This document shows, piece after piece, positions 1-30,180 of a stretch of DNA of 42,521 nt. Source of the stretch: a virus; the IMG/VR virus record IMGVR_UViG_3300018083_000059, positions 1 through 42,521 of that record; one strand, 5' to 3'. The notes under the pieces were generated by a model. That model saw only the letters and a program-made list of their open reading frames with translations. It was not told the origin of the DNA and made no database searches. The translations under genes were made by a program, and so were the position numbers. Numbering within the stretch: position 1 is the stretch's first letter; every line of letters begins with the position of its first letter.

Positions 1-75
1 GCGGTGCGGGTCGAGATCGAAACCATGATCCTTGAAGGCAATGCCGAAGTGCGGCCACGGCCCACCGCCGCCTGA
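1..75 (+). CDS. 3' end (partial, duplicated copy) of the small CDS annotated at 42231..42473
   Basis: In-frame continuation AVRVEIETMILEGNAEVRPRPTAA*, identical to 42399..42473. Confidence 0.5.
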   Translation, partial: AVRVEIETMILEGNAEVRPRPTAA

Positions 76-123
76 TCCCAGGAGTTTTCAATGCCACAAG
101 CTGATGACGCGCCATCTGGCAGC
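1..123. repeat. Terminal overlap copy 1 (identical to 42399-42521)
   Basis: Direct comparison of the first and last 123 nt. It spans the end of one CDS and the start of the scaffold CDS. Confidence 0.95.
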
Positions 124-1155
124 GCCAGCCCCCAGGTGTTAACTGTCAATCAAGCGGCGGATGCCATCGCCGGGCTGATGGATTCGAAGGAGCCAAAGAA
201 GGCTCCCGAGAGCAAACCGGAAGCCGACGAGGCACCGCAGTCAGAGGACGAAACGCCGTCCGAAGCCCCCGAGGGAGAGGAATCCGACGAGGACACTCCC
301 GAGCCCGAAGGGGACGACGAGGCGCCATCCGATGCAGCCGACGAAGACGAGGAAGCCACCGAGGAACTCGCCGAGGAATCCGCGCCGCCAGCCAAACTGA
401 AGTTGGATGATGGCACCGAGATCACCCTCGACGAGGCCAGGAAGGGCTACCTCCGCCAGTCGGATTACACCCGGAAGACGACGGAACTCGGCGAGAAACG
501 CCGGGAGGCCGAAGCCTTCCTTGCGCAGACCGCACAGATCGACCTTCACGCGCGGACCCTGGCCGAGCGGGCGATGCTGCTGATCCAGCAGATCGCGCCG
601 GAAAAGCCTGATCCGCGTCTCATCGAAACCGATCAATTCGCCTATCACGAGCAACGGGCCCGCTGGGAAGCCTGGAATGAATGGACGACGACACTCGAAT
701 CCGATCGTCGGAACCTCGAACACGCGGTCGTCCAGCGACACCAGCAGAACCAGCAGAACGTCGAGAGTGAGACCAAACGGCTGCGGCAGGAGGAAGCGCA
801 GAAGCTCCTCAAGCTGCGGCCGGAGCTGAAGGACCGGAAGAAGTTCGACGAGTTCCGCGGCAACCTGATGACGACGCTGCCCAAGGCGTTCGGCATTCAG
901 CCCGAGGAGATCGTCAACATCGCCGATCATCGGCTGCTGCTCGCCGCAGATGCGGCGGCCAGATATTACAAGCTCACCACCGCGGATCGTAAGAAGGCGA
1001 TTGAGAAAGGGAAGGATGCGCCGCCGGTGCAGACGCCCGGCAAGCGCACGTCGTCTGCTGAACAGCGGGCGAAGGTGAAGGGTCAGCATGTGCAGAGGCT
1101 GCGTCGGAGCGGCCGTGTGGAGGATGCCGCACGCGCCATTATGGATGACCTCTGA
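91..1155 (+). CDS. Putative scaffolding protein
   Basis: AGGAG SD before the ATG. Acidic D/E/P-rich N-terminus, helical charged remainder. Lies directly upstream of the major capsid gene. Confidence 0.55.
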   Translation: MPQADDAPSGSASPQVLTVNQAADAIAGLMDSKEPKKAPESKPEADEAPQSEDETPSEAPEGEESDEDTPEPEGDDEAPSDAADEDEEATEELAEESAPPAKLKLDDGTEITLDEARKGYLRQSDYTRKTTELGEKRREAEAFLAQTAQIDLHARTLAERAMLLIQQIAPEKPDPRLIETDQFAYHEQRARWEAWNEWTTTLESDRRNLEHAVVQRHQQNQQNVESETKRLRQEEAQKLLKLRPELKDRKKFDEFRGNLMTTLPKAFGIQPEEIVNIADHRLLLAADAAARYYKLTTADRKKAIEKGKDAPPVQTPGKRTSSAEQRAKVKGQHVQRLRRSGRVEDAARAIMDDL

Positions 1156-1167
1156 GGACACCCCTAA

Positions 1168-2130
1168 ATGACCCAGACTGTTGGCACTTATTCGACCTAT
1201 GACATCAAAGGCGCACGCGAGGATCTGCAGGACAAGATCTACATGATCTCGCCGACCGACACGCCGTTCCAGGCTAATGTCGGCACGCAAAGCGTCAAGG
1301 CCACGAAGCACGAATGGCAGACCGACGCGCTCGCCGCGGCGGCCAGCAACGCCTTCGTTGAAGGCGACGAGTTCTCCTATGCGGCGCCGGCGGCGACCGT
1401 CCGGGTGGGCAATTACACCCAGATCTCGCGGAAGACGTTCCTGATCACCGAGACCACCGAGGCGGTCGAGAAGGCCGGCCGCAAGAGCGAGGTGAGCTAC
1501 CAGCTCGCCAAGCAGGGTAAAGAAATAAAGCGGGACATCGAGACCGATCTCCTGGGCAAGAACGCCTCGGTGGCCGGCAATGACACCACCGCCCGCAAGA
1601 GTGGCGGCTTCGAGGCGTGGCTGACTTCCAACGATGCCCGCGGCGCCCTTGGCGTTCAGGGCGGCTACAATGTCGCCACTGGCGTTGTGGACACGGTGAC
1701 GGACGGCACGCAGCGCGCCTTCACCGAGGACCTGCTCAAGGACGCCCAGCAACTCGCCTTCACGAGCGGCGGCGAGCCTTCCATCCTGATGCTGGGGCCG
1801 TTCAATAAGCGTAAGTTCAGCGGCTTCACCGGCATTTCCGACCTGCGGAAGGATACGCCGGGCAAATCTCAGGCGACCATTATTGGTGCAGCGGACTACT
1901 ACACCGGAGATTTCGGGGGGCTGGCGGTGATAGTCAACCGGTTCCAGCGGGATCGCTCGGCGCTGCTGATCGATCCGGAGTATGCAAATATGGGTTGGCT
2001 TCGGCGCATGAAGCATGTGGAGCCGGCTATCATCGCCGACGCCGAGCCGCACGTGCTAATTTGTGAATGGACGCTAATAGTTGAGAATGAGGCAGCGCAC
2101 GCAATAGTTGCCGACCTTTTAACCACGTAG
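1168..2130 (+). CDS. Major capsid protein (HK97-fold type)
   Basis: 320 aa with high GC3. N-terminus (TYSTYDIKGAREDLQDKIYMISPTDTPF...) and overall pattern are typical of podovirus/P22-SU10-like coat families. Follows the scaffold gene. Confidence 0.85.
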   Translation: MTQTVGTYSTYDIKGAREDLQDKIYMISPTDTPFQANVGTQSVKATKHEWQTDALAAAASNAFVEGDEFSYAAPAATVRVGNYTQISRKTFLITETTEAVEKAGRKSEVSYQLAKQGKEIKRDIETDLLGKNASVAGNDTTARKSGGFEAWLTSNDARGALGVQGGYNVATGVVDTVTDGTQRAFTEDLLKDAQQLAFTSGGEPSILMLGPFNKRKFSGFTGISDLRKDTPGKSQATIIGAADYYTGDFGGLAVIVNRFQRDRSALLIDPEYANMGWLRRMKHVEPAIIADAEPHVLICEWTLIVENEAAHAIVADLLTT

Positions 2131-2155
2131 CGCTTCATTCAAGATATGCTATCAT

Positions 2156-2182
2156 CCGGGCCCTGCGCAAGGGAGGGCCCGG
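2156..2182 (+). promoter_or_regulatory. Perfect 9-bp hairpin sequestering the SD of the HNH gene
   Basis: CCGGGCCCT (2156-2164) pairs with AGGGCCCGG (2174-2182). GGGAGG SD at 2171-2176 and ATG at 2183 lie in or next to the right arm. Confidence 0.5.
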
Positions 2183-2773
2183 ATGGTTACTTGTTCGGTC
2201 AATGGGTGCGAGGGTCGCGTCAAGACGCGAGGCTTTTGCAACAAGCACTACATTCGGCTGCTGCGTCACGGCTCGCCGGATGTCCTCCTGTTCGTCCGTG
2301 GCTCGCTGGAGGAGCGGTTCTGGTTCCATGTCGTGAAGGGCAGGAACAAGAACGCCTGCTGGCAGTGGAAAGGCTATGTTTTGCCGACCGGGTACGCTCA
2401 GATCCAGATGGGCGGGCTAGGCTCGTCGCATATCCTTGTTCATCGTCTGAGCTACGAGATTCATTGCGGGCCGATCCCGAAGGGGATGATTGTCATGCAC
2501 AGTTGCGACAATCCCTCCTGCGCGAACCCGCGTCATCTCTCGTTAGGCACGCATCTTGATAATATGCAGGACATGTTCGCCAAGGGGCGTAACAACAATA
2601 CCGGCAGGCCGAAGGGCGAGGCGAACGGCAGGTCGGTCCTTGATGAAACCGCAGTTCGGTTTATCCGCGCCAATCAGACCATGACCTACAGGGCTATCGC
2701 GGAATCCCTCGGCGTTTCGCGTTCGGCGGTACGAGACGTCAAGGTCGGCCGCACCTGGACCCACATCACGTAA
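2183..2773 (+). CDS. HNH homing-type endonuclease (HNH_3-like core, N-terminal Cys cluster, C-terminal HTH)
   Basis: CxxxGC...GxCNKHY; HRLSYEIHCGPIPKGMIVMHSCDNPSCANPRHLSLGTHLDNMQD; C-terminal YRAIAESLGVSRSAVRDV. Paralog of 5062..5664. Confidence 0.85.
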   Translation: MVTCSVNGCEGRVKTRGFCNKHYIRLLRHGSPDVLLFVRGSLEERFWFHVVKGRNKNACWQWKGYVLPTGYAQIQMGGLGSSHILVHRLSYEIHCGPIPKGMIVMHSCDNPSCANPRHLSLGTHLDNMQDMFAKGRNNNTGRPKGEANGRSVLDETAVRFIRANQTMTYRAIAESLGVSRSAVRDVKVGRTWTHIT

Positions 2774-2819
2774 CCAGCGTTATGTCTTTGGCGGGGTAGC
2801 CACAATACCGCCAAGGGAA

Positions 2820-2858
2820 CCGCCGCTTCGGTGTCGTGGCCGGGGCGGCGGGCTTTTT
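2820..2858 (+). terminator. Putative rho-independent terminator
   Basis: CCGCCGC (2820-2826) pairs with GCGGCGG (2845-2851), followed by GC and TTTTT (2854-2858). The loop is rather large (18 nt). Confidence 0.45.
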
Positions 2859-2872
2859 CAAAGGGGACCGAC

Positions 2873-3331
2873 ATGGAAGAGAACATCGCGCACGTCGAGG
2901 ACGTGGCGGCGAAGCGGCGGGAGTCGTTGAAGCGTGCCCGAGCGGTCAGGGATGCCAACGTCGCGGCTCGCAAGGCCAATCCCCGCCAGCTCGATCTTGA
3001 GGAAGAAGCGCCAGCCCCAGCGCCGCGGGCTAAGCCGCCTGCGCAGCGAACGGTAAGGGTGCGGCTGCTCAAAGCGTATTGGCCGGGCGATGGGCGGGAG
3101 CATCCGGACGCGGCTAACCGCCTTTCCGGGCGCAAGCATCGGTTCGATGCCGGCGAGATCCTCGACCTGCCGGTGGCCGAGGCGCGGCTCCTGCTCGAGG
3201 AGCATGTGGAAAAGAGGACGGTCAGGGTGTGGGACGCCAAGATGCGGCGCTGGGTGGACCAGGACGACAGCCTGTACCGGCCGCCGGTTGCGGTGAGGGC
3301 CAACGCCTACAGCGTCGAGGACGATGCCTGA
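2873..3331 (+). CDS. Hypothetical protein (basic/charged)
   Basis: ATG at 2873 preceded by AAAGGGG. The track ORF start at 2831 lies inside the terminator hairpin, so the downstream ATG is preferred. Confidence 0.6.
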   Translation: MEENIAHVEDVAAKRRESLKRARAVRDANVAARKANPRQLDLEEEAPAPAPRAKPPAQRTVRVRLLKAYWPGDGREHPDAANRLSGRKHRFDAGEILDLPVAEARLLLEEHVEKRTVRVWDAKMRRWVDQDDSLYRPPVAVRANAYSVEDDA

Positions 3332-3951
3332 TGTTGCCTTTGAAGCTCAGCGATCTCCGCATGTTGCGGAAGGCCGTGGCTGAGGCTGGGTTGCTGCGTG
3401 AGGAGCATGCGCGCGTTGCTGCGGATGTGGTGGCGCATCGTTCCAATGTGCATCGCCTCATGGCGGCGAAGGAAAGGGTGGAAGCCGAATTGCGGGCAGT
3501 CGAGGCCAAGCGGCAAGCCGCTGAGGCATGGTTGCAGAAGGTCAATGCATCCACCGAGGCCAGGCTGCAGCAAGCCAAGGATGGGGAGGCCTCCTACCGC
3601 AAGTCGGTCGAATTGCTGAAGGCCGAGAACACCGATCTGGACAAGCGTCGGCAGGCGCTTCGTGAGGCGTATGCCCGCGACCTCGATGGCGATCCGATCA
3701 AGAACCTCAAGAAGGAACTGGCCTCGATGCAGGCCCGCATCGACCAGTGGAGGGCGAAAAACATCCAGTTGGCTTCTCAGGTCGATGTGCTGAAGCAGGC
3801 CAACGCCAGGGGGTCGAAAGCCCTTAACGAGATGACGGATCGATATGAGAATTTGAAGGACGAGGTCGAGCGACGAGGGACTGAGAAAGAGGCCAAGCTA
3901 AACCGCCGCCGTCACTTGTTCGACCGCATCATGTCGGGCGGGACCGTCTGA
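3331..3951 (+). CDS. Hypothetical coiled-coil protein
   Basis: TGATG stop/start overlap with the upstream gene. Heptad-rich charged sequence (AELRAVEAKRQAAEAWLQK..., DLDKRRQALREAY...). Confidence 0.6.
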   Translation: MLPLKLSDLRMLRKAVAEAGLLREEHARVAADVVAHRSNVHRLMAAKERVEAELRAVEAKRQAAEAWLQKVNASTEARLQQAKDGEASYRKSVELLKAENTDLDKRRQALREAYARDLDGDPIKNLKKELASMQARIDQWRAKNIQLASQVDVLKQANARGSKALNEMTDRYENLKDEVERRGTEKEAKLNRRRHLFDRIMSGGTV

Positions 3952-3953
3952 CA

Positions 3954-3974
3954 ATGGCCGGAATCCGCCATTTT
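3954..3974 (+). terminator. Weak terminator-like hairpin plus T4
   Basis: ATGG(C)CGG-aat-CCGCCAT followed by TTTT, directly after the stop at 3951. Confidence 0.35.
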
Positions 3975-4084
3975 GGCCGAAGGTCACTATTAGGCACTAA
4001 TTGGCATTAATTACCGACCGGGAATTAGTGACCGCGCTATGGCGCCTTATGGCGGCATATGGCGCTTGATTAAATCAGGAATGT
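3975..4084. promoter_or_regulatory. AT-rich structured intergenic region (candidate internal promoter or regulator binding array)
   Basis: GGTCACTA (3982) / TAGTGACC (4025) inverted repeat. Three TATGGCG copies at 4038, 4048 and 4058 (10-bp phasing). One inverted copy, CCGCCAT, at 3966. Confidence 0.4.
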
Positions 4085-4444
4085 ATGAACGACGAATATG
4101 CTGGCTGGATGCAGCGCTTCCGGCCCGGCGGCGACTATCGTTTTCACGGATGGGACGAGGTCCAGGGCATTCTATCGTGGCTGCATGTTCGTGATGATGG
4201 CGCCTGGGAGGTCGTGCAGCAGGCGATCTACGCGCCGAGCCTTTACGACATGAACAAGGAGGCCGAGGCCGACAGCAATGGGCAGCGGTTCGGCTCGGGC
4301 AAGCTGGTCGCGTCGATTCCGGTGAATATCGCCTATGCCACCGGCTTCATGGAGGCGGCCAAGGAGAAGGATCATCGCTGGATCGCCCGATTTCTAAATG
4401 ACCCAGCGCACAGATTCTTCAAACGCTTCGGAAGGAAACTCTGA
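4085..4444 (+). CDS. Hypothetical protein
   Basis: 119-aa ORF with good GC3. Stop overlaps the next start (TGATG). Confidence 0.6.
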   Translation: MNDEYAGWMQRFRPGGDYRFHGWDEVQGILSWLHVRDDGAWEVVQQAIYAPSLYDMNKEAEADSNGQRFGSGKLVASIPVNIAYATGFMEAAKEKDHRWIARFLNDPAHRFFKRFGRKL

Positions 4445-5052
4445 TGGCGTTCGGTAACTACACCGAGCTTAAGGCGACGATCGCCGAGTATGTCGGCCGC
4501 GACGATATCGACCCGCAGATCGCCGGCTTCATCGCGCTCGTCGAGACCGAGCTGAACCACGACGCCGATTTTCGCCTGGCGCAGATGCAATGGGAGGAGA
4601 CGCTGATCCTCGACCAGGACGGCGAGGCATCGCTGCCGCCTGATTTCCTTGAGCTGTATCAGGCGAGCATGGGCGGGGGCGCCAATCGGCGGGTGTTAAA
4701 ACTGGTCGACCGGTCGAACCCGTATGTGTATTGGAACTTCGGTATCACGGGGATCTGCATCGTCGACACCGGGACGATCACCGTGCCTGGCGCCGCCAAT
4801 GGGTCGGTCAACCTGCTCTATTACTCGGCCATCCCGCCGCTCAGCGACACCAATCCGACGAACTGGGTGCTGGCCGAGGCGCCGGCATTGTATTTGTATG
4901 GCGCGATAAAATCGTACACAGCTTTTAACAGAGAACCACAAGAACACATTGCGACTATTCAAATGTATGAGCAAGCTAAAGATAGCATAAAGGCTGCTGA
5001 CAGAGGCCGATGGCATTCAATGAGGGTTCGGATACCTAGTCCAACGCCCTAG
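4444..5052 (+). CDS. Putative tail tubular protein A / head-tail adaptor-like protein
   Basis: 202 aa. The N-terminus (MAFGNYTELKATIAEYVGRDDIDPQIAGFIALVETEL) recalls phage neck/adaptor families. Size and position match T7 gp11. Confidence 0.4.
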   Translation: MAFGNYTELKATIAEYVGRDDIDPQIAGFIALVETELNHDADFRLAQMQWEETLILDQDGEASLPPDFLELYQASMGGGANRRVLKLVDRSNPYVYWNFGITGICIVDTGTITVPGAANGSVNLLYYSAIPPLSDTNPTNWVLAEAPALYLYGAIKSYTAFNREPQEHIATIQMYEQAKDSIKAADRGRWHSMRVRIPSPTP

Positions 5053-5061
5053 GAGCGGTTG

Positions 5062-5664
5062 ATGGTTTGGAAAGACGTGACGTGTTCGGTCGGTGGATGC
5101 GATCGAGATGCCTATTGTCGGGGTCTATGCCAGAAGCATTATAACCGGCTCCACAAGACGGGTACGGTCACCGATCCGCCCCGGACCTATAAGCGCGGAT
5201 TGACGTTGGAACAGCGCCTGTGGGAGCACACCAAGGTCGGCGCTCCTGACGAATGCTGGGTTTGGGCTGGATCTACGAGCGAGAGCGGTTATGGCAAGCT
5301 GATTGACAGCTCTCAGGCCAAACGCCGACACCTCACGACCCATCGGGTGAGCTATGAAATCCACTATGGGCCGATCCCGCCTGGGGGGCTTGTTTGCCAC
5401 CACTGCGACAACCCTGCGTGTGTGAATCCGGCTCATCTTTTTGCCGGGATGGCCCGCGACAACTGTCTCGACATGATCGCCAAGGGGCGTGACCGGATTG
5501 TAGGCGAACGGCACAATCGCGCAAAGCTCAGAGCCGAAGATGTGAAGGCAATCCGTGCTATCGAGGGGATGTGTCAGAAGGACATCGCGGCGGCCTTTGG
5601 CATCAATCAGCCGCAGGTGTCGGCGATCCGGCGAGGCGCCGCTTGGCGGAGCCCGACGCCATGA
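5062..5664 (+). CDS. HNH homing-type endonuclease, second paralog
   Basis: AGGAG SD 6 nt before the ATG at 5062. CSVGGCDRDAYCRGLCQKHY; HRVSYEIHYGPIPPGGLVCHHCDNPACVNPAHLFAGMARDN; C-terminal HTH QKDIAAAFGINQPQVSAIRRG. Confidence 0.85.
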   Translation: MVWKDVTCSVGGCDRDAYCRGLCQKHYNRLHKTGTVTDPPRTYKRGLTLEQRLWEHTKVGAPDECWVWAGSTSESGYGKLIDSSQAKRRHLTTHRVSYEIHYGPIPPGGLVCHHCDNPACVNPAHLFAGMARDNCLDMIAKGRDRIVGERHNRAKLRAEDVKAIRAIEGMCQKDIAAAFGINQPQVSAIRRGAAWRSPTP

Positions 5665-5927
5665 CCAGCAGGCGAATCAACGTGAAGGAGGCGGCTGCAT
5701 ATCTTGGCGTCAGCAAGTCGGCGCTGGACAAGTGGCGCATGTCTCCGGAGGCCCGTGCTTATCAGCATCAGCATTATGGATGGGCGGCCACTGACGGGCC
5801 TCCATTTATCAGGATTGGCAGGCGGATCGTCTACGATACCGCCAACCTCGATCAGTGGATGGGGGTTGCACAAAACTCTGCACAAAACCCTGCACAAAAC
5901 CCTGACGTGTGGGACGTCGGGCCATGA
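5661..5927 (+). CDS. Excisionase/AlpA-type HTH DNA-binding protein
   Basis: ATGA overlap with the HNH stop. INVKEAAAYLGVSKSALDKWR...PPFIRIGRRIVYDTANLDQWM fits the HTH_17/MerR-like excisionase fold pattern. Confidence 0.65.
   Translation: MTSRRINVKEAAAYLGVSKSALDKWRMSPEARAYQHQHYGWAATDGPPFIRIGRRIVYDTANLDQWMGVAQNSAQNPAQNPDVWDVGP
5868..5903 (+). repeat. 12-bp tandem repeat x3 (GCACAAAACYCT)
   Basis: GCACAAAACTCT GCACAAAACCCT GCACAAAACCCT, encoding AQNS-AQNP-AQNP at the C-terminus of the HTH protein, 20 nt before the next start. Confidence 0.9.
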
Positions 5928-7390
5928 TGCCCTTCGGCCAGTTCGCCCCCGACGCGTTTTTGCTCGACAGCCAGCTGGCCGGGGATGCCCGCGGCGTCCT
6001 GCCGGGCGCCAATTCCTATCTGCCGTGGCCGAGCCTGGTCGCGGTTTCCAACCCGCTGCCGGCCCCCTGCTTCGGCTTCACCATGTTCCGCACCACGGCA
6101 GGCGGCTTTGGCGTCATCGCCGGCACGCAGACCAGGCTCTACCGCTACGACACCGCCGGGACGCCATGGACTGAGATCGGCAGCGGCTACAGTGTCCCGG
6201 TCGATGAGAAATGGAATTTCCAGCAGTTCGGCAACTTCATGCACATGACGAACGCCAGCAACGGGCTGCTGCAATATGACGTCGACCTTGGCGGTGCTGT
6301 CGTGCCGAATCCCGGATCGCCGCCGGCCGCCCGCTACATTGTCGCCTGGGGCGACCAGCTGATGCTTGGCGGGCTGACCAACTTCCCGAATTACATCTGG
6401 CTCAGCGGGCGCAACAATCCCGACTGGTGGGAGCTCGGCGAGATGGATTGCACACGGCAGCTCCTGCCGGATGGCGGCCGGGTCACCGGCTTGTCGCCGA
6501 TGGAAACCGGACTGATCTTCCAGGAAGGGATGGTGCGAAAAATCCTGCCGGTCGCCAATGACGCGATCTTCACCATCTCGAAGATCGAGCAATCCCGCGG
6601 CCTCGTTGCTCCGGACAGCCTCGTGATCCTGGCTAATGTCGCCTATTACCTCAGCGAAGAGGGCTGGATGGCGACCGATGGCTCGGGCGCGTCGAAGCGG
6701 ATCGGCGTCGATCGCATCGACGCCTGGTTCAAGGAAGGCTCCAACCAGTCGCGGCTTTCGGTCATCCAGGGGACCACCGACCCCGAGCGGTCGCGCATCT
6801 ACTGGATCATTCCAGGGCCCGGCAACGGCACCGACCAGACGCTTGACTTCATCCTCTGCTACGACGTCCAGGCCGACAAATGGACGGGCGCCGAGGTGCG
6901 GACGCAGGCGATCCAGGCGGCGCAGGTGCCGAGCTATACGATGGATAATCTGTCGGTACTGCTGGCCTCGATGGGCCTGGGCGACGATCTCGACCAGGTG
7001 CCGTTCAGCCTCGACAGCCGGTTTCTGGTTGCCGGCGGGACGACCATGGCGGCGTTCACCGCCGACAACCGCCTGGCGTTCTTCAACGGCCCGCCGATGA
7101 AGGCGATCATCGAGACTGCCGACTTTCAGCCGGTGCCAGGCAAGCGCGGCTTCGTCAAGGGCTGCCAGCCATTCACCGACGCGGCGGCGGCGACCATTGC
7201 GGTGGGCCGCAAGGAGCGGCCTTCCGATGCGACGGTATGGACGGCCGAGCGGCCGATCGATCGCCGCGGGTGGGCCTGGATGCGGTCGATGGGACGCATT
7301 CAGCGGGTGCGGATGACGATCCCGGCGGGGGCTGCATGGTCGCACGCGCAGGGCATAGAACTGGCCATGAAACCGGATGGAGCGAGATGA
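5924..7390 (+). CDS. Putative tail tubular protein B / nozzle-like virion protein
   Basis: 488 aa, ATGA overlap with the upstream stop. Beta-rich repetitive pattern (propeller-like). Position corresponds to T7 gp12. Confidence 0.4.
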   Translation: MMPFGQFAPDAFLLDSQLAGDARGVLPGANSYLPWPSLVAVSNPLPAPCFGFTMFRTTAGGFGVIAGTQTRLYRYDTAGTPWTEIGSGYSVPVDEKWNFQQFGNFMHMTNASNGLLQYDVDLGGAVVPNPGSPPAARYIVAWGDQLMLGGLTNFPNYIWLSGRNNPDWWELGEMDCTRQLLPDGGRVTGLSPMETGLIFQEGMVRKILPVANDAIFTISKIEQSRGLVAPDSLVILANVAYYLSEEGWMATDGSGASKRIGVDRIDAWFKEGSNQSRLSVIQGTTDPERSRIYWIIPGPGNGTDQTLDFILCYDVQADKWTGAEVRTQAIQAAQVPSYTMDNLSVLLASMGLGDDLDQVPFSLDSRFLVAGGTTMAAFTADNRLAFFNGPPMKAIIETADFQPVPGKRGFVKGCQPFTDAAAATIAVGRKERPSDATVWTAERPIDRRGWAWMRSMGRIQRVRMTIPAGAAWSHAQGIELAMKPDGAR

Positions 7391-19123: not shown

Positions 19124-19324
19124 GCTCCCGGAACGTCCAATGAACGCTGTGTCAAATTTGGGCTCGTCGTATCCTGCTTGTTCTTGATTCCTGCCGTTTC
19201 GACCTGCATGGACATGCAAGCAAAACGAGGCAGGACTTGAGATTTTCCGCGGGTTTCCCTACACCAACCGATGGCCGCCTCTGGCCCTTGCGGAGGAGTT
19301 TACGTAATATGGTAAGCTGTTGTC
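19124..19324. other. Non-coding region next to the integrase 3' end; candidate attP-containing region
   Basis: AT-richer than its surroundings. Imperfect hairpin CTCATA(TA)CGC-tttct-GCGTATGAG overlaps the int stop. The core cannot be defined without the host attB. Confidence 0.3.
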
Positions 19325-20314
19325 TCATATACGCTTTCTGCGTATGAGATATGGTTTTGTGTCGGATTTTGTGCCACTGATCCTGTCCGCTAGCGTGTCA
19401 TCCTCGGCGGCGTGCCCGTAGGTCGCGAAGACGTGCGCCGGGCTCTTCCACCCGCCCAGTTTCGCCACCGTCACCACATCGACGCCGGCCTGCAGCATCG
19501 CCGTAGCGAAACCATGCCGGCAGGCATGGAATGACAGCGGCTTGATCTCTGCCCGTGTGATCGCTGCATCCCACCTCGGCAAGGCGTTCTCTCGTGAGAG
19601 ATAACCGAACACCCGGCCGTTCGGCTGCTGGTCGATGTTGGCTATTGCGGCGACAAGGACGGGCGGCAGGTGGGCTCGGCGCTCGGCGCCTATCTTGGTC
19701 TGCCGGATCAGCGCGCGGGCATTGGGGAGGCTTACATCAGCCCAGCGAAGGCTGGTCGCCTCGGTGATCCGAGCGCCGGTCAGGAACATGAAGCAGGCAA
19801 GGGCGCCGAGATGCGGCGAGGCATGCGCCATGAACGCCTCGATCCAAAGCCAGGTCGCCGGTTCCTTCTCGTGTTTGACGACCGGGAAGCGCCGCATCCG
19901 CACGATGGGCGGGCAGAGGTCGTGGTCGGCAGCGTGGTTGATGATCGCCTGCGTCGGGACCAGGACATGGCGGTTCCGGGTCGCGCCCGAAGCATTGGGA
20001 TAAAGGGTCTTTGCCGATTCCCGGATAGCGCCGGTCGTGATGTCCTTCACGCGGGTGTCGCGCCAATAATCCTCGATCTTGTCGAGGAAGCGGGTCGGCT
20101 TGCCTGCCCTTCGGTAGAGAATGGCGGCTTGGGCGAACGTCAGAACGGCTTCGGGTCCATCGAGACGACTTTGCCATTGCTTCGCCGCGGCTTCGTCGGC
20201 GATGCGGCGCGCGATTGCCTGGTCCTCAGTACGCGTAGAGCCGCGTAGTCGCCGGCCGGCAACGGTGCCTCGGTAGTACCAGACCTCGCCACGCTTGAAG
20301 AGTGTGAGGGACAT
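19325..20314 (-). CDS. int: Tyrosine integrase
   Basis: MSLTLFKRGEVWYYRG N-terminus. TGARITE (Arg), HACRHGFAT (His-x-x-Arg), ATYGH (catalytic Tyr). Confidence 0.9.
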   Translation of the reverse strand: MSLTLFKRGEVWYYRGTVAGRRLRGSTRTEDQAIARRIADEAAAKQWQSRLDGPEAVLTFAQAAILYRRAGKPTRFLDKIEDYWRDTRVKDITTGAIRESAKTLYPNASGATRNRHVLVPTQAIINHAADHDLCPPIVRMRRFPVVKHEKEPATWLWIEAFMAHASPHLGALACFMFLTGARITEATSLRWADVSLPNARALIRQTKIGAERRAHLPPVLVAAIANIDQQPNGRVFGYLSRENALPRWDAAITRAEIKPLSFHACRHGFATAMLQAGVDVVTVAKLGGWKSPAHVFATYGHAAEDDTLADRISGTKSDTKPYLIRRKRI

Positions 20315-20472
20315 GGCTTTGTCGCCTTCAAGAGGGTGCGGACGTCGTCTTCGGTGAGCACCATAGTCTTGCCGATGACGCTGCAGGCGCCAAGGTCGCG
20401 GGCCAACTTGCGCAAAGTCCTTTCGGGGCAACCAAGCTGGGCGGCGACGGCTGCCGGCGTGAGGAATGTCAT
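20140..20472 (-). CDS. Excisionase-like HTH protein with a long 3' extension over the int start
   Basis: LTPAAVAAQLGCPERTLRKLARDLG...VLTEDDVRTLL HTH. The ORF runs 175 nt into the int coding region in another frame. Confidence 0.55.
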   Translation of the reverse strand: MTFLTPAAVAAQLGCPERTLRKLARDLGACSVIGKTMVLTEDDVRTLLKATKPCPSHSSSVARSGTTEAPLPAGDYAALRVLRTRQSRAASPTKPRRSNGKVVSMDPKPF

Positions 20473-21811: not shown

Positions 21812-22128
21812 CACGCGTTCTCCTCCTTGAAAGGAATCCCGGCGGCGCGCATCGAACTGGCCAGCTCAGACATGGCCGTGGGCGCCTTGGCAGGCTCGCG
21901 GTCGGCCCACACCCGCAGGAGTGAGCGGCGGCATCCCTCAAGCTCCTGGCGGGCGTACATGAGGTAACGCATGGCGTCGTCGAGGTCGTCGACATCGACG
22001 AGGTTGACGAACATGCTCTCGCGAGCAACGCCGAGTTCGGCTTCGAAGGCCGTCAGTTCGGCGAGCATGCGCTCGAGGCGGATCGAGGCGGTAAGCTGGG
22101 TGCGGAGGGCGGAGAGGGTCGTGGGCAT
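21811..22128 (-). CDS. Hypothetical protein, first gene of the leftward early operon
   Basis: GGAGA SD 7 nt before the ATG at 22128; 105 aa. Confidence 0.55.
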   Translation of the reverse strand: MPTTLSALRTQLTASIRLERMLAELTAFEAELGVARESMFVNLVDVDDLDDAMRYLMYARQELEGCRRSLLRVWADREPAKAPTAMSELASSMRAAGIPFKEENA

Positions 22129-22159
22129 CTGCGGTCTCCATCGGGGTTCCGATGGGCAT

Positions 22160-22188
22160 AACGTGGAGGACATCCACAGCAGTGTCAA
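22160..22188 (-). promoter_or_regulatory. PL-like promoter with embedded 15-bp palindromic operator
   Basis: Minus strand: TTGACA (22188-22183), 5 nt, GTGGATGTCCTCCAC (22177-22163), candidate -10 CACGTT (22165-22160). Same layout as at 22626. Confidence 0.45.
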
Positions 22189-22231
22189 CAGAAAAGTGTA
22201 TGACATCCACGCAGAAAAATTAGCGGTGCTG

Positions 22232-22567
22232 TTAAGAGCCGGTCTTTAGCAAGGCGTCGACGATACGAAGCACCTGCGCTTTTTGCTCTGCCGACGCCGT
22301 TCGGAGATGGTCGGTAATCGACCAGACAGCATCAATATTTCCCGGATTGCGGGTTACTAGATCGGCCACGGTGCAGCCATACGCATCCGCAGCCGCTTCC
22401 ATAAACTGTTGCCCATAAGGGCTTTTCCGGTTTTCGATCTTCGACAATTGAGTTCGCGAGATGCCGAGCCGGGAAGCAGCTTCCTCCTGGCTGAGGTTTC
22501 GGAACTCCCGCCACTCCTTGAGAAAATGACGCTGCAGCGGACGCTTGGGATGCGAGACAGATGGCAT
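22232..22567 (-). CDS. CI-like repressor, XRE-family HTH, short form without a peptidase domain
   Basis: LKEWREFRNLSQEEAASRLGISRTQLSKIENRK HTH. 111 aa. Divergent from the Cro-like gene. Confidence 0.8.
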   Translation of the reverse strand: MPSVSHPKRPLQRHFLKEWREFRNLSQEEAASRLGISRTQLSKIENRKSPYGQQFMEAAADAYGCTVADLVTRNPGNIDAVWSITDHLRTASAEQKAQVLRIVDALLKTGS

Positions 22568-22625
22568 AGCCGAATGTCCCGCCGCACCACGGCCTCGATC
22601 TACGCCATAGCATGAACATACGTGC

Positions 22626-22654
22626 TTGACATCCACGTGGAGGATATCCACTAT
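22626..22654 (+). promoter_or_regulatory. PR-like promoter with embedded 15-bp palindromic operator
   Basis: TTGACA (22626-22631), 5 nt, GTGGAGGATATCCAC (22637-22651), candidate -10 CACTAT (22649-22654). The predicted start is about at the cro ATG. Confidence 0.45.
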
Positions 22655-22661
22655 CACATGC

Positions 22662-22871
22662 ATGACATTCCACGAATGGGCCGCTCAGTCCGGCAAAACC
22701 GACGATTGGATCGCTGCGCAGGTCGGACGTGATCGATCTACGATCACGCATGTCCGGAACCGGAATAAGCGCGCGAGCCTGGAACTGGCGGTGGCGCTGA
22801 ACAGATTGAGCGGCGGTCTGGTTCCGGTAGATGACTTCCTCCTTACTCAGACTGCCGAGGCCGGCGAATGA
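22662..22871 (+). CDS. Cro-like / YdaS-like small HTH regulator
   Basis: 69 aa. WAAQSGKTDDWIAAQVGRDRSTITHVRN...LELAVALNRLSGGLV pattern. No SD, ATG about 7 nt after the candidate -10. Confidence 0.6.
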   Translation: MTFHEWAAQSGKTDDWIAAQVGRDRSTITHVRNRNKRASLELAVALNRLSGGLVPVDDFLLTQTAEAGE

Positions 22872-23209
22872 CCGGCGGTCGGGCCTCTCGCATGAAGGGA
22901 AGTCGTAGAGAGCTTCAAGCCGTCCGTGTCATGCAGACGGCCGGCCTTGCCGCCGAGAAAACGCCCTTGTCGGGGTCTGTCGGCGGGAAATTTGCCGGCG
23001 ATATCTCCTGCCCGATCCTTGGCGTCGACCGGCGCTTCGAGGTCAAGGCCCGCGCCTCCGACTTCAGCCTGATCAGACGCTGGTTGGACGAGAATTACGG
23101 CCTGATCCTCAAGACCGATCGCAAACCAACCCTGGTCGTCATGCGGCTCGATGACTTCGCCGAGCTGGCCTATGGCGCCGACCGCAAGCGCCTGGAGGCC
23201 GCAGAATAA
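22868..23209 (+). CDS. Putative Holliday-junction-resolvase-like PD-(D/E)XK endonuclease
   Basis: KGSRRELQAVRVMQTAGLAAEKTPLSGS...GDISCPILGVDRRFEVKAR resembles archaeal Hjc-like phage resolvases. ATGA coupled to cro. Confidence 0.5.
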   Translation: MTGGRASRMKGSRRELQAVRVMQTAGLAAEKTPLSGSVGGKFAGDISCPILGVDRRFEVKARASDFSLIRRWLDENYGLILKTDRKPTLVVMRLDDFAELAYGADRKRLEAAE

Positions 23210-23775
23210 TGGACGCGATCGTCAAGAACGCCCATCTGTGGCGGCGCCATCCCGAAGACTTCTACGTCGAGCCAGGTTGGGTTTCGTGGAGGTTATTCGA
23301 CGTTGAACAGTTCAAGGGGGCAATATGGGATCCAGCTTGCGGAATAGGACGGATCGTCGATTCAGCAAGTCGGAATCATCATTATCTTTCATTCGGGTCT
23401 GACATCGTTAAGCGGTCGGACTGGTGTGAGAACGAAATAGATTTCCTCTCTGCCCCTGTTCAAGAGTGGCACGAGATCGTCAGCAATCCACCTTTCGGCA
23501 TCGCCGACAAATTCATCAAGCACGCCCTTGCCGCTCGCAAGGTGGCGATGCTCCTCCCGACGAAATGGATGAATAGCGCTGCCCGCGGCAAGTGGCTTGA
23601 GACCACGCCGCTGAAGCAAGTGTTGCTGCTTGCGCCACGGCCGTCGATGCCGCCTGGCCCGGTGATCGAGGCCGGCGAGAAGCCCGGCAACGGCACCGTC
23701 GACTTTGCCTGGTTCGTGTGGGAGCGCGGCTATATCGGCGCACCGACCATCGGGTGGCTGAGGAGAGACGAATGA
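23209..23775 (+). CDS. Small DNA N6-adenine methyltransferase
   Basis: IWDPACGIGRI (SAM motif I) and SNPPFGIADKF (motif IV, NPPF). 188 aa. The N-terminal half is visibly lower in GC. Confidence 0.75.
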   Translation: MDAIVKNAHLWRRHPEDFYVEPGWVSWRLFDVEQFKGAIWDPACGIGRIVDSASRNHHYLSFGSDIVKRSDWCENEIDFLSAPVQEWHEIVSNPPFGIADKFIKHALAARKVAMLLPTKWMNSAARGKWLETTPLKQVLLLAPRPSMPPGPVIEAGEKPGNGTVDFAWFVWERGYIGAPTIGWLRRDE

Positions 23776-23957
23776 ACCCGTTCGAAGCTTTCGCGAAGAA
23801 ACACGAACTTATCATCACTTATACAAATTGGCCTGTTCTTGATCATCGTTTTAAATATTGCGCCGCCTATTCGGGCGTCGAGAGATGCGGCTACGGCGCC
23901 ACCGAAGAAGAAGCTATCGCTGATCTCCTTCGCTTTGATGATGAAGATGCCGAATGA
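23772..23957 (+). CDS. Hypothetical protein with C-terminal GYGATxxEAxxDL motif
   Basis: ATGA coupling at both ends, low GC3, 61 aa. ...CGYGATEEEAIADLLRFDDEDAE. Confidence 0.55.
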   Translation: MNPFEAFAKKHELIITYTNWPVLDHRFKYCAAYSGVERCGYGATEEEAIADLLRFDDEDAE

Positions 23958-24703
23958 ACCCCTTTACCACCCACGGCATCGACCACCTCAGCGCCTCGGC
24001 GATCAACCAGTTCGCCGCCAGCCCCGCCATCTTCGTCTTAGAGCGTGTCCTCAAGCGCAAAACGCCTGTCGGCGCCGCCGCCCACCGCGGTTCGGCAGTC
24101 GAGGACGGCATCGTCCACGGCCTCACCACCGGCGCGGACGACGACGCCTGCGTCACCTACGCCATGGCATCCTTCGACCGGCGGGCGGCGCTCAGCGGCG
24201 ACCTCCGCCGCGATACCGAGCGCAAGGCGGTCGGCGACATGGTGAAGACCGGCCTGGCCGAACTCCGCAGTTACGGCGAGCCGACAAGCATCCAGGGCAA
24301 GATCGAGCACTCCTTCCCCGACGTCATGGTGCCGCTGATCGGCTTTTATGACACCGAATGGGCCCAGCACGGCATCCTGATCGACATCAAGTCAACCCAC
24401 CGGATACCGTCCGAGATCTCGACCAGCCATGCCCGCCAGGTCGCCCTTTACCAGACGGCCCGCAGCGATAACGCCGACGCCCGGCTGAGCTACATCTCGC
24501 CGAAACGCGCCGCGACCTACCAGCTGGAAAACTTCCGCCGGCACCTCGCCGCCATGGAGCGCATCGCGCTGACCATCCAGCGGTTCCTGAGCATCAGTGC
24601 CGATCCGCAAGAGCTGGTGGCGATCGTCGCCCCAGACACTGATTCCTATTACCTCGCAGACCCGAGCGCGCGACAGGCGGCTTTCGATGTCTGGGGTTAC
24701 TGA
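23954..24703 (+). CDS. PD-(D/E)XK family exonuclease (RecB/Cas4-like phage nuclease)
   Basis: ...GILIDIKSTHRIP....HARQVALYQ matches the D-x(n)-(D/E)xK ... QxxxY arrangement. Lies next to the SSB-like gene. Confidence 0.6.
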   Translation: MNPFTTHGIDHLSASAINQFAASPAIFVLERVLKRKTPVGAAAHRGSAVEDGIVHGLTTGADDDACVTYAMASFDRRAALSGDLRRDTERKAVGDMVKTGLAELRSYGEPTSIQGKIEHSFPDVMVPLIGFYDTEWAQHGILIDIKSTHRIPSEISTSHARQVALYQTARSDNADARLSYISPKRAATYQLENFRRHLAAMERIALTIQRFLSISADPQELVAIVAPDTDSYYLADPSARQAAFDVWGY

Positions 24704-24743
24704 ACTCGACCCGTGACGGGCGAGAATGACAAGGAGAGAAGCA

Positions 24744-25421
24744 ATGGCACTTGGATTGAACTTCGATAGTAATTCCGGCGATATCATGCCGATCATTAAA
24801 TACGATGCCCGAGCCGGACGTATGTTTCGGATCGACCGGGAAGATGGCGTCAATACTCCCGAGGACATAACCGACGAGTTCAAAGCCGTCTTCGACTTTG
24901 AGAATGTCGAAACCGGCTGGATCGATTTCCAGACCGGTGGAGCCCCGATCTTCACACTGTCCCCATTCGGCACTACGCCGCCGCCATTCCCCGGAGGCAG
25001 TGCCAAGCCCGGCGTTAGGGTGATGCTGCGGCTGGCCCAGGATTGTGGCAACGACGTCCGGGAGTTGGCGACAACCGCCAAGGCCGCCCTCCGCGGCATC
25101 GACGCCCTGCATACCGCCTATATGGACGCCAAGGACGCCAACCCCGGCAAGCTGCCTGTGGTGGCGATCGAGAAGATCATTCCGATCATCTCCGAAGGCG
25201 GCGGTCAGAAGACCACCAATTACTCACCAATCTTCGTCATCATTGGTTGGACCGAACGGCCAAAGGATCTGATCTTCAAAGCCAAGAACCAGCCGAAGCC
25301 ACAACTGGCGGCCGCCAATGGGACGCATGTTTCAGCCCCGGCGACCGGCTCGACCAAAGTCCCTCCTCCATCAAAAAAATCAAAGCCTGCGATGACCGTC
25401 GTGGAAGGCGACTTTGGCTGA
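24744..25421 (+). CDS. Putative ssDNA-binding protein (T7 gp2.5-like)
   Basis: AGGAGA SD 6 nt before the ATG at 24744. Basic/Pro-rich linker. C-terminus ...VVEGDFG resembles the acidic aromatic tail of gp2.5-type SSBs. Sits in the recombination/replication module. Confidence 0.4.
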   Translation: MALGLNFDSNSGDIMPIIKYDARAGRMFRIDREDGVNTPEDITDEFKAVFDFENVETGWIDFQTGGAPIFTLSPFGTTPPPFPGGSAKPGVRVMLRLAQDCGNDVRELATTAKAALRGIDALHTAYMDAKDANPGKLPVVAIEKIIPIISEGGGQKTTNYSPIFVIIGWTERPKDLIFKAKNQPKPQLAAANGTHVSAPATGSTKVPPPSKKSKPAMTVVEGDFG

Positions 25422-25837
25422 TGCTGGAGGGCGCCGATCGGGAGAAGTTCCTGAAGCTTCAGGCCCTTTTCGATAGCCCGGTCGAGAGCGAGCGGCTGGC
25501 GGCATTATCAGCCGCCAATCGCCTCCTCGAACGCAATAACACGACATGGCGAGACCTCAACGGCCACTCGCCAGTCCCCGTCTCACCGCCACCACCACCG
25601 GCATGGTCGCCGGCCGCTGACGCCCCAGCCGAAGAACGAAAACACCTCGGCAAAGAGGCCGCCGACCGGATGTATCTGGTTCTTCAGGAACTGCTGGCTC
25701 ACAAGCTGACCGCTTGGGAAACCAAGTTCACGACCGACATGATCGCCAAAATAGAAGAATACGAAGGGCGGTCGTTCTTGAGCAGTAAGCAACTCGCGAT
25801 AATAGAACGCATGTACGACGACTACATATCAAAATAA
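25421..25837 (+). CDS. Hypothetical protein
   Basis: TGATG coupling; 138 aa. The N-terminal KFLKLQALFDSPVESERLAALSAANRLLE helix pair is common in phage replication-module proteins. Confidence 0.5.
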   Translation: MLEGADREKFLKLQALFDSPVESERLAALSAANRLLERNNTTWRDLNGHSPVPVSPPPPPAWSPAADAPAEERKHLGKEAADRMYLVLQELLAHKLTAWETKFTTDMIAKIEEYEGRSFLSSKQLAIIERMYDDYISK

Positions 25838-25912
25838 GGGGTCGGGGTTGAGGTGCGGCAGCCTCCCCGTGATTTCCCATAACCAAAGCCGGCCAGGACG
25901 GAACGAAGGATC

Positions 25913-28030: not shown

Positions 28031-28050
28031 TTATTCAATTAGTTATGGGC

Positions 28051-28162
28051 TTGCGAAGACGCCTGCTAAGACGCTTGCGAAGACGTCTGCGAAGACGCGA
28101 AGACGGTATCCTCAAACCCGCAGAAACCCTTGCGAAGACGTTGCGAAGACATGTGCGAAGAC
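28051..28162. repeat. Iteron array (TGCGAAGAC), candidate origin of replication
   Basis: Copies at 28052, 28076, 28088, 28131, 28142, 28154. Variant TGCTAAGAC at 28064, truncated GCGAAGAC at 28097. The first four are 12-bp phased. Lies directly after the primase/helicase stop. Confidence 0.6.
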
Positions 28163-28164
28163 AT

Positions 28165-28214
28165 CCCCCCCCGTACCCCCCCCCCGCACGCGAGGGAGGC
28201 TTGGGGCCTCCTCG
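28165..28214. other. C8-GTA-C10 homopolymer pair followed by a GC hairpin and an A7 tract
   Basis: CCCCCCCC (28165-72) GTA CCCCCCCCCC (28176-85). CGAGG(G)AGGC / GCCTCCTCG stem at 28191-28214. AAAAAAA at 28222-28. Confidence 0.8.
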
Positions 28215-28283
28215 CGGCGGCAAAAAAAGAACCCCACCAAACCGCCCCGGCCACAACGCCGTGGACAACGTCAGGAGGACGCA

Positions 28284-28685
28284 TTGCGCTACCGGGATTG
28301 CATGATCGTTTGGACGCCGATCAATTCGTTCGTCTGGAACCACGACGAGAAGAAAACAGTCCCCAACCCTCGGCGAGGAGAAATCAGGGTTGGGCTTCAT
28401 CCCCATGAAACCGATTCATTAGCAGGCTACGACAAGAGCACAGGTGCCTGCCATTGGGACCGGAAAAGCATGACGCCATTGATGCAGGTCGCGTTCATGC
28501 TCGTCGACTTCTACGAGATCATCACTCATGACGGCCTGAACCCGCGGAAGGTCCACAAAGCATTCCTGGCGATCGACGAATTCCGCTGGGTCATCTCACC
28601 CGACATGGAAGGCGCCGAACCGGCCCCGGAAGAGTGGGCGAAGCAGATGAGGCTTGCCGGTTATGTCGAGGCCCAGCATGCCTAA
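28284..28685 (+). CDS. Hypothetical protein
   Basis: TTG at 28284 lies 5 nt after a perfect AGGAGG; the alternative start is the ATG at 28302. The upstream part of track ORF 28014.. only translates the iterons. Confidence 0.5.
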   Translation: MRYRDCMIVWTPINSFVWNHDEKKTVPNPRRGEIRVGLHPHETDSLAGYDKSTGACHWDRKSMTPLMQVAFMLVDFYEIITHDGLNPRKVHKAFLAIDEFRWVISPDMEGAEPAPEEWAKQMRLAGYVEAQHA

Positions 28686-29878: not shown

Positions 29879-29939
29879 CTTGGCGACTGAAATGATTATC
29901 GAATCGTCACGTTCAGTTTCGTCGGAATTTTGTCAATAG

Positions 29940-29968
29940 CCCGCCCGGCCATGCCGCGGCGGGTTTTT
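29940..29968 (+). terminator. Rho-independent terminator separating the early and late operons
   Basis: CCCGCC-CGG / CCG-(C)-GGCGGG GC-rich hairpin followed by TTTTT (29964-29968). Confidence 0.65.
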
Positions 29969-29985
29969 CGCGTGAGGGCCAGCCC

Positions 29986-30180
29986 ATGACAGGCGCACTC
30001 ATCGGCCTCATCTTCCTCATCATCATCGTCGGCGTCGTCGTCTGGATCGTCCTCCAGCTCGTCGCCATGCTGCCAATGGACGCCGGATTCCAGAACATCG
30101 CCAAAGGCCTGATCATCATCGTCGCAATCCTCATCATCGCCTACAAAGCCCTGCCACTCCTCGGGATACCGGTGCCGTGA
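29986..30180 (+). CDS. Small two-TM membrane protein, holin-like
   Basis: GAGGG SD. 64 aa with two hydrophobic helices (LIGLIFLIIIVGVVVWIVLQLV; GLIIIVAILIIAY). First gene after the terminator, upstream of terS. Confidence 0.4.
   Translation: MTGALIGLIFLIIIVGVVVWIVLQLVAMLPMDAGFQNIAKGLIIIVAILIIAYKALPLLGIPVP

Follow-up and report, generated by a model that had tools for sequence, protein, structure and literature searches.

The 3' end of the major capsid protein gene in a 42,521-nucleotide viral sequence (IMG/VR record IMGVR_UViG_3300018083_000059, analyzed at its full length and referred to here as the window) is silently recoded over 17 codons, and directly downstream of this gene lies an insertion carrying a free-standing HNH endonuclease gene (referred to as HNH1). 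In the alleles compared, the HNH1 cassette is facultative and has a precise empty site, endonucleases of the same lineage are found at this locus in other phages, and the recoded patch is both silent and specific to the HNH1-carrying allele. In the sequences at hand, recoding next to a homing-type element recurs at two further elements, namely a second HNH gene (HNH2) downstream of the adaptor gene in the window and an insert in the capsid gene of a sister phage (L001). The best reading, and in our judgment a probable one, is intronless homing, in which a patch at the target site would protect the carrier. An earlier note on this sequence had proposed a homing footprint at the capsid 3' end; the allele comparison supports that proposal, and from it we infer cleavage activity of HNH1, the position of its target, immunity of the carrier, and gene conversion of the flank together with the cassette.

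Compositional Shift at the 3' End of the Capsid Gene

The capsid open reading frame (ORF) is continuous, encodes 320 amino acids, matches the Pfam family SU10_MCP (E 1.3e-86, residues 9-317 on profile positions 10-291 of 292), and aligns end to end with 12 homologues. A variant whose protein differs by two amino acids (P0179) is present on a 13.7-kb Joint Genome Institute (JGI) contig. Because both the profile match, which runs through residue 317, and the alignment cover them, the C-terminal residues are homologous to those of other SU10-type capsids, and the alternative raised in the earlier note, that the last 25 residues might have no counterpart in other capsid proteins, is false.

Whereas the whole window has a G+C content (GC) of 63%, positions 2056-2130 contain 34 G or C among 75 nucleotides (0.453, identical to the count in the earlier note), which places them among the lowest 1.5% of all 75-nucleotide windows. 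GC at third codon positions (GC3) falls from 0.82 in codons 1-296 to 0.42 in the last 24 codons. An unbiased maximum-likelihood search for a single change point returned nucleotide 2056 (likelihood ratio 17.2, permutation p 0.0025, binomial tail 1.4e-5), the very position at which the earlier note had seen the codon usage switch. The HNH gene that the note placed after the capsid gene likewise matches the Pfam family HNH_3, but the AT-rich spacer that it described between the two extends over 2131-2155 only: the spacer as a whole (2131-2182) is 62% GC because a GC-rich hairpin occupies 2151-2187, and 2056-2182 overall is 52% GC.

Ranked by the GC3 of their 3' ends, the genes of the window are led by the adaptor gene (0.40), followed by the capsid gene (0.44) and the integrase gene (0.48). 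This ranking is based on a rough call of ~49 ORFs, in which a shadow ORF replaced the capsid gene, so that the capsid value was computed separately from its last 25 codons. The chance that both genes located 5' of HNH genes rank in the lowest 3 of ~50 is 0.0024, and of 245 control genes taken from GC-rich contigs of other phages, 0.8% have a 3' GC3 drop of >=0.37. As a note for annotators, these patches rich in A+T at third codon positions (AT3) are not sequencing or assembly artefacts.

Comparison of Capsid Alleles

Six other capsid alleles were compared with that of the window. L001 (IMGVR_UViG_3300037070_000778), the closest relative in IMG/VR, has a capsid protein with 96% amino acid identity and a different HNH gene at the same post-capsid site (51% amino acid identity to HNH1), while L151, a Logan contig 99% identical to L001, has no HNH gene there. 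In the other four (L024, L025, L031, and L032, with capsids of 71-76% amino acid identity), the next gene directly follows the capsid gene with no HNH gene between. GC3 of the last 25 capsid codons is 0.44 in the window, vs. 0.84-0.92 in these four, 0.76 in L151, and 0.72 in L001. Alignment with the five HNH-less homologues thus gives a C-terminus that is kept at the protein level at a GC3 of 0.76-0.92, and all five are GC3-rich over the 17-codon core delimited below.

At the DNA level, all six alleles share the conserved stretch CAY GTC CTK ATC TGC GAR TGG ACG CTS ATC GTC, where the window reads GTG CTA ATT TGT GAA TGG ACG CTA ATA GTT. In the core patch (codons 296-312), the window departs from L001 and L151 at 11 of the 16 degenerate codons (0.69) without a single amino acid change in 17 residues, and GC3 is 0.41 in the window vs. 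0.82 in both relatives. Over codons 1-200, by comparison, the window and L001 use different synonymous codons at a fraction of 0.23, with three amino acid changes in 200 (Fisher p 2.6e-4 for the core patch vs. codons 1-200). Private third-position substitutions, counted at sites invariant in five other alleles, make up 3/5 in the patch and 9/71 elsewhere (p 0.026, a comparison of little power). The Nei-Gojobori pS of the patches, 0.93-0.95, was not used as evidence for more than saturated divergence, since two-fold degenerate sites inflate it; the plain fractions are 0.62-0.69.

The last eight codons and stop behave differently. In the window they read ATA GTT GCC GAC CTT TTA ACC ACG TAG and in L151 ATA GTT GCC GAC CTT TTG ACG ACC TAA, whereas L001 differs. 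Since this segment is nearly identical in the HNH-less L151, the HNH1-specific core is limited to 2053-2103; of the ~25 codons that the earlier note took to be recoded along with the HNH gene, codons 296-312 stand and the last eight do not. L151 is itself a mosaic, L001-like through codon 312 and window-like from codon 313 into the downstream region, and its junction (~1147-1177, codons 312/313) coincides with the 3' edge of the recoded patch of the window.

The HNH1 Cassette

In L151, the capsid stop codon is directly followed by GCGTTATGTCTTTGGCGGGGTAGCC..., a sequence matching window positions 2777-2815 at 100% identity; the cassette therefore spans the 646 bp between the capsid stop codon and this sequence. 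An empty site of the L151 type thus consists of GC3-rich codons 296-312, the stop codon, and then GCGTTATG... The hairpin and terminator region that follows the cassette in the window (2786-2857) is conserved in L001 and L151, and in HNH-less alleles it lies directly 3' of the capsid stop. L150, from a run accession neighboring that of L151, is 100% identical to L001 and HNH-plus, and therefore both states appear to coexist.

Homologs of HNH1 are located directly after SU10-type capsid genes in L001 (51% identity), L033 (49%), and L034 (41%), whose capsids are 96%, 51%, and 39% identical to that of the window, respectively. Given how divergent the capsids of L033 and L034 are, the endonuclease lineage is tied to the post-capsid locus. 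The window phage itself was found at 100% identity, over the stretches compared, in at least four independent samples (ERZ27267964, SRR7007031, JGI 3300018055, and ERZ27267922); its copies L152-L155 and L129 all contain HNH1, and the two contigs that are long enough also contain HNH2. Among the matches listed, the exact 152-amino-acid protein encoded downstream in the window occurs on eight contigs, all eight of which carry HNH1.

The window contains exactly two HNH genes. The HNH1 protein matches Pfam HNH_3 with 50.6 bits (cut-off 24.8) over profile positions 2-46 of 46, matches helix-turn-helix families as well, and is assigned to PHROG HNH families with E 1e-33. Residues H87, H106, C108, D109, C113, H118, N127, and D130 are invariant in alignments of 22 and 33 sequences, and those in the motif would be expected to have catalytic roles. 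Its AlphaFold2 model (predicted local distance difference test score 93) has I-HmuI (1u3e) as top PDB match in Foldseek (E 8e-4, probability 1.0, 167/174 columns aligned), although the template modeling score is only 0.33-0.37 (the domains may be differently oriented), and sequence similarity to I-HmuI is marginal (phmmer E 0.75, 18% identity). An intron-encoded origin of HNH1 was considered and rejected, as the capsid ORF is continuous over 320 amino acids, the cassette begins after its stop codon, and the window has no Rfam match above threshold.

A hairpin at the start of HNH1 pairs its Shine-Dalgarno region and start codon (-34.7 kcal/mol, z -4.2; none of 200 shuffles was equally stable). 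In L001, the start of the HNH gene has a comparable hairpin (L001 1918-1953) that is unrelated in sequence, and L033 (~3965-3990) and L034 (~680-712) have inverted repeats, hairpin-forming as judged by eye, which end 4-5 nucleotides before the ATG. A strong hairpin thus appears to be present at or just before the HNH start in all four capsid-downstream cassettes, while the four sequences are unrelated. Homing endonuclease genes of phage T4 have ribosome-binding sites sequestered by a hairpin, including promoter-plus-hairpin arrangements (PMC2988022). An extended -10-like motif read by eye at 2147-2155 (TGCTATCAT; TGnTATCAT), which our promoter scan does not report, lies on the 5' arm of the hairpin and recalls the T4 late transcripts that start inside such a hairpin and thereby free the ribosome-binding site. 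Altogether, the cassette is probably made up of a hairpin that sequesters the ribosome-binding site and an I-HmuI-like HNH gene with a helix-turn-helix domain, carried by a temperate SU10-like podophage.

Recoding Next to Two Further Elements

The adaptor gene and HNH2, a cassette that the earlier note did not describe, repeat what is seen at the capsid gene and HNH1, and on codon composition the signature is the same and stronger. GC3 of the adaptor gene drops from 0.85 to 0.38 over its last 55 codons (change point nucleotide 4885, permutation p <5e-4, binomial tail 2.8e-15). In L001, where no HNH2 is inserted and the stop codon of the adaptor gene shares bases with the start codon of the gene after it (CCATGATGCCC), GC3 over the same codons is 0.7-0.9. 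Synonymously different codons between the window and L001 amount to 0.62 in the patch vs. 0.28 upstream. HNH2 is 41% identical to HNH1. Its cassette also holds a small ORF matching HTH_17, as well as excisionase-like families (phrog_66); the stop codon of this ORF overlaps the start codon of the structural gene that follows, recreating the CCATGA junction of the empty site, and its C-terminus contains a triple 12-nucleotide repeat (GCACAAAACYCT, 5868-5903) that encodes AQNSAQNPAQNP.

The third case is in the sister phages. The capsid gene of L001 and L151 is split after codon 243 (..IIGAAD) by ~746 nucleotides (908-1653 in L001), and likewise that of L150. The insert in L001 contains a 221-amino-acid homing-endonuclease-like ORF with a LAGLIDADG-like motif (LAGILDGEG), which matches phrog_5046 ("HNH endonuclease," E 3.5e-9) and no Pfam family. 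Exon 1 ends with T and the insert with G, as in group I introns, while the Rfam search of L001 found group I introns below threshold only (17.4 bits vs. 50). Exon codons 244-275, just 3' of the insert, have a GC3 of 0.50 vs. 0.75 in the uninterrupted allele of the window. Further interrupted SU10-type capsid genes may be present in Phage C72C1 (GenBank OQ984150.1), in which the capsid tblastn match is in two pieces and "major head protein" is annotated twice with hypothetical genes between, and in L148, where the capsid match is fragmented.

Proposed Mechanism and Points Against It

Under intronless homing, HNH1 would, during co-infection, recognize and nick or cut the GC3-rich sequence CAC GTC CTG ATC TGC GAR TGG ACG CTG ATC GTC at the capsid 3' end of an HNH-less phage. 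The break would then be repaired from the carrier genome, so that the cassette and the adjoining patch are copied together, and the silent patch would shield the carrier from its own enzyme. About 70% of the synonymously variable core codons differ, which would be about the level of fully randomized synonymous positions. With a genome GC3 of ~0.8, silent changes are mostly from G/C to A/T, and an AT-rich patch can therefore arise without a low-GC donor; because of this background, randomized silent sites come to a GC3 of ~0.4-0.5.

It is possible, though we would not yet call it probable, that these AT3-shifted silent patches are scars of immunity located right at the recognition sites of the adjacent endonucleases. 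If so, a GC3 change point alone would reveal the target of an uncharacterized free-standing or intron-borne homing endonuclease in GC-rich phages, and the three independent cases in two sister phages would be instances of selection imposed by a selfish nuclease on silent positions in essential structural genes.

Several observations weigh against homing with a protective patch. The empty site is documented by one 1.2-kb contig (L151), which extends 39 nucleotides past the junction. Synonymous divergence between the window and L001 is elevated well beyond the patch (0.44-0.71 after codon 200), and in the immediately neighboring codons 276-295 it is 0.44 with no amino acid change in 20, vs. 0.69 in the patch (p 0.14); the contrast with these neighbors is one of composition more than of divergence. 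Two homologs of HNH1 accompany capsid ends without the patch: L033 has an unrecoded capsid end (GC3 0.84), and L001, despite an HNH gene at the same site, has a GC3-rich core and diverges in the last eight codons only. Within the lineage of the window, three contigs besides its own were compared at the DNA level and are 100% identical, patch included, and none of the eight contigs with the downstream 152-amino-acid protein provides an HNH-less allele spanning the core patch. The patch could therefore predate HNH1. Among 5.8 billion proteins searched, no other phage has an HNH1 of more than 51% identity (the best non-self match is 48% identical, in a list without the HNH of L001 at 51%), and no second carrier that would document a transfer of cassette and flank was found. 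Finally, a survey of 96 viral contigs with HNH_3 homologs, which were reduced to 14 that are non-redundant, GC-rich, and have an upstream gene, found no general upstream AT3 shift next to these distant homologs (median change 0.00 vs. -0.02 in controls, p 0.57). An AT3 shift as a universal trait of the HNH_3 family is thereby ruled out.

Alternative Explanations

None of the alternatives accounts for all three replicates as simply as homing with immunity does. One of them, which is unlikely, is that the patch is a passive mosaic junction, derived from another capsid allele and brought in with the cassette by co-conversion or recombination, with no role in immunity. Flank co-conversion is documented for homing events (PMC2988022, PMC2790892). 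The capsid genes of the window and L001 form a mosaic, in which synonymous divergence rises from 0.23 in codons 1-200 to 0.44-0.71 further on, L151 is recombinant at codon 312/313, and in the adaptor patch amino acid identity falls from 0.83 to 0.73 with non-synonymous changes leaning to A/T. The capsid patch, on the other hand, encodes exactly the peptide of the L001/L151 lineage, including the lineage-specific residues VENEAAHA that are common only to the window, L001, and L151, and therefore a distant capsid gene is an unlikely donor. Nor do the cassettes, which are not AT-rich (GC3 0.75 for HNH1 and 0.67 for HNH2; GC 0.58-0.60), indicate a donor with a GC3 of ~0.4, and at both of them the upstream flank alone is shifted while the downstream flank is normal.

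It is improbable that the AT-rich codons were instead selected for HNH expression, as an embedded promoter or UP element, through weak mRNA structure, or as slow codons. The sole sigma-70-like match in a promoter scan of 1000-6200 (TTGAGA-16-AATAGT, 2081-2108) does fall inside the capsid patch, promoter-plus-hairpin arrangements are known from the T4 homing endonuclease genes cited above, and some coupling is plausible at HNH2, whose Shine-Dalgarno sequence overlaps the adaptor stop codon. This match is at chance level, however (score 9/12; 1 found vs. 1.5 expected), and a transcript starting beyond 2108 would still hold the whole hairpin that sequesters the ribosome-binding site. The same scan found no promoter-like match in the adaptor patch, whose 165 nucleotides far exceed the length of a promoter, and in L001 and L033, where homologous HNH genes occupy the post-capsid site, the coding flank is not AT-rich. 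A promoter motif shared by both patches was also considered and rejected, as they have only the 8-mer CTTTTAAC in common, which is compatible with chance.

Still less probable is a by-product of breakage, in which self-nicking followed by error-prone or AT-biased repair would have introduced changes and purifying selection on the capsid would have purged those that were not silent. Substitutions are indeed directional (GC to AT vs. AT to GC 12:5 in capsid codons 296-320 and roughly 1:1 elsewhere; 36:10 in the adaptor patch vs. 31:26 upstream, p 0.01), and the adaptor patch has moved toward A/T at non-synonymous positions too. The same directionality, though, is expected from any randomization of a GC3-rich start; the substitution types (C>T, G>A, C>A, C>G), judged by eye from the alignment without a tally, are mixed and not strand-coordinated; and mutagenesis is not required by any of the data. 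A chance fluctuation, or a general compositional effect at gene 3' ends unrelated to HNH genes, is hardly credible, for although the window has ~20 low-GC troughs and small windows fluctuate, the change-point permutations at the capsid and adaptor genes, the position of these two genes at the bottom of the 3'-end ranking, and the six capsid alleles without the shift all speak against it.

Other Features and Database Searches

The features of the region are listed in Table 1.

Table 1. Positions of the capsid, adaptor, and HNH features in the window.
Feature	Position	Strand	Basis
Major capsid protein gene, SU10 type, complete and uninterrupted	1168..2130	+	Pfam SU10_MCP and alignment
Core recoded patch, capsid codons 296-312, HNH1-allele-specific; putative recognition/nicking region	2053..2103	+	GC3 0.41, allele comparison
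Last 8 capsid codons and stop, moderately AT3-rich, not HNH1-specific	2104..2130	+	Near-identity to HNH-less L151
HNH1 cassette, 646-bp facultative insertion between capsid stop and capsid terminator region	2131..2776	+	Empty site in L151
Extended -10-like motif overlapping 5' arm of hairpin, no -35; speculative	2147..2155	+	Read by eye
RNA hairpin pairing Shine-Dalgarno region (GGGAGG) and AUG of HNH1	2151..2187	+	Fold
HNH1, free-standing I-HmuI-like HNH endonuclease gene: N-terminal Cys-rich segment, HNH_3 domain, C-terminal helix-turn-helix	2183..2773	+	Pfam, PHROG, AlphaFold2
Two hairpins, the second an intrinsic terminator (2820-2851 and T run)	2786..2857	+	Terminator scan and fold
Head-tail adaptor gene, SU10 adaptor	4444..5052	+	Pfam SU10_adaptor E 5.4e-22
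Second recoded patch, last 55 adaptor codons	4885..5049	+	GC3 change point
HNH2 cassette, ~870 bp, between adaptor stop and next gene start	5053..5921	+	No insert in L001
HNH2 gene	5062-5664	+	HNH_3 36.8 bits
Small HTH_17 ORF in HNH2 cassette, 88 amino acids	5661-5927	+	Pfam HTH_17 E 7.6e-7

Besides the two genes upstream of the HNH cassettes, the only gene in the window with a 3'-end GC3 <=0.5 encodes a tyrosine integrase (minus-strand ORF 19325-20431, Pfam Phage_integrase E 2.3e-21), and the phage is therefore probably temperate. The AT-rich 3' end of the integrase gene adjoins a gap of low GC (down to 0.37) separating convergent genes (19278-19401; region 19240-20431), which may be the attachment site attP. 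Short low-GC troughs (GC 0.33-0.45) are also present across 22100-30600, between and inside early/replication genes (e.g., 23753-23893 and 27919-28095), and are probably promoters or other regulatory regions.

In GenBank phages, a DNA search with positions 1-6000 found nothing above 76% identity over ~100 nucleotides, and capsid tblastn matches were at most 51% identical. A capsid scan of metagenome contigs returned nothing closer than 54% identity, and one of genome contigs nothing. With a degenerate pattern for the peptide CEWTLIVENEAAHAIV, L001 was the single match in IMG/VR and genomes gave none, the empty-site sequence pattern had no match in IMG/VR, and a protein search with the C-terminal 77 amino acids of the capsid gave one irrelevant match, owing to the word-index limit.

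Comparison with Known Homing Systems

A direct parallel to HNH1 is T4 mobE. The free-standing HNH endonuclease MobE nicks nrdB of the mobE-less phage T2, and polymorphisms at the nick site in mobE carriers have been proposed to prevent self-nicking (PMC2790892). Like HNH1, mobE is a free-standing HNH gene located in a gap (nrdA/nrdB) beside an essential conserved gene, and it relies on read-through transcription from upstream that is restrained by RNA structure (PMC2790892, PMC2988022). MobE acts within the neighboring gene of phages without mobE, and flanks are co-converted (PMC2790892, PMC2988022), as would be the case for HNH1 at its putative target. The two differ in that MobE has an N-terminal HNH domain and a C-terminal domain of its own, and in that MobE targets the gene downstream of its own, at the 5' end of nrdB, whereas the patch here lies 27-78 nucleotides from the insertion, within the 3' end of the gene upstream. 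Further, the signature here, unlike that of mobE, is a shift in composition (GC3 0.8 to 0.4), owing to the GC-rich genome.

The T4 genes for SegF, SegG, and SegB are also free-standing and are inherited preferentially together with flanking markers, with a cleavage site separate from the insertion site (intronless homing, marker exclusion), and segB, like HNH1, has a hairpin sequestering its ribosome-binding site (PMC2988022). The Seg enzymes are of the GIY-YIG type and make double-strand breaks, whereas HNH1 is of the HNH type. Free-standing endonucleases are described as cleaving hundreds or thousands of bp away from their gene (PMC2988022); in contrast to the Seg systems, the putative site here is within ~80 bp.

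Among HNH enzymes, I-HmuI and I-HmuII of the Bacillus phages SPO1 and SP82 are nicking enzymes, and in I-HmuI (1u3e) the HNH domain is followed by a helix-turn-helix, as in HNH1. I-HmuI, though, is encoded in a group I intron of a DNA polymerase gene, while HNH1 lies outside any intron and leaves the capsid ORF intact. Cos-type phages encode a small, conserved, terminase-associated HNH protein in their structural/packaging block, which is needed for packaging and whose gene lies beside terminase and cos. HNH1 and HNH2 were considered as such packaging proteins and rejected, since they follow capsid and adaptor genes, are absent in close relatives, and have a predicted sequence-specific helix-turn-helix domain.

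In ICP1 and other phages, homing endonuclease genes, including those of the HNH_3 family, are located beside capsid, terminase, and ribonucleotide reductase genes and mark recombination boundaries between related phages (PMC10448857). In the passages considered, no silent, compositionally shifted patch is described, and the word "synonymous" does not occur in the paper. Unlike in the ICP1 cases, the boundary here is inside the capsid ORF and is resolved to ~17 codons.

HNH1 is a further example of the known free-standing homing endonuclease type and not a new kind. As such it is a clear but ordinary case, which was to be expected from the work on T4 mobE and the seg genes and leaves the general picture unchanged. 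It is also a clean natural one, with a base-precise empty site and a carrier-specific flank in which 17 codons of the essential capsid gene are silently recoded, and it extends the T4-type picture to temperate SU10-like podophages from environmental metagenomes. In high-GC phages, an abrupt fall in GC3 near the end of a gene directly next to an HNH gene may indicate precisely where the nuclease has its target.

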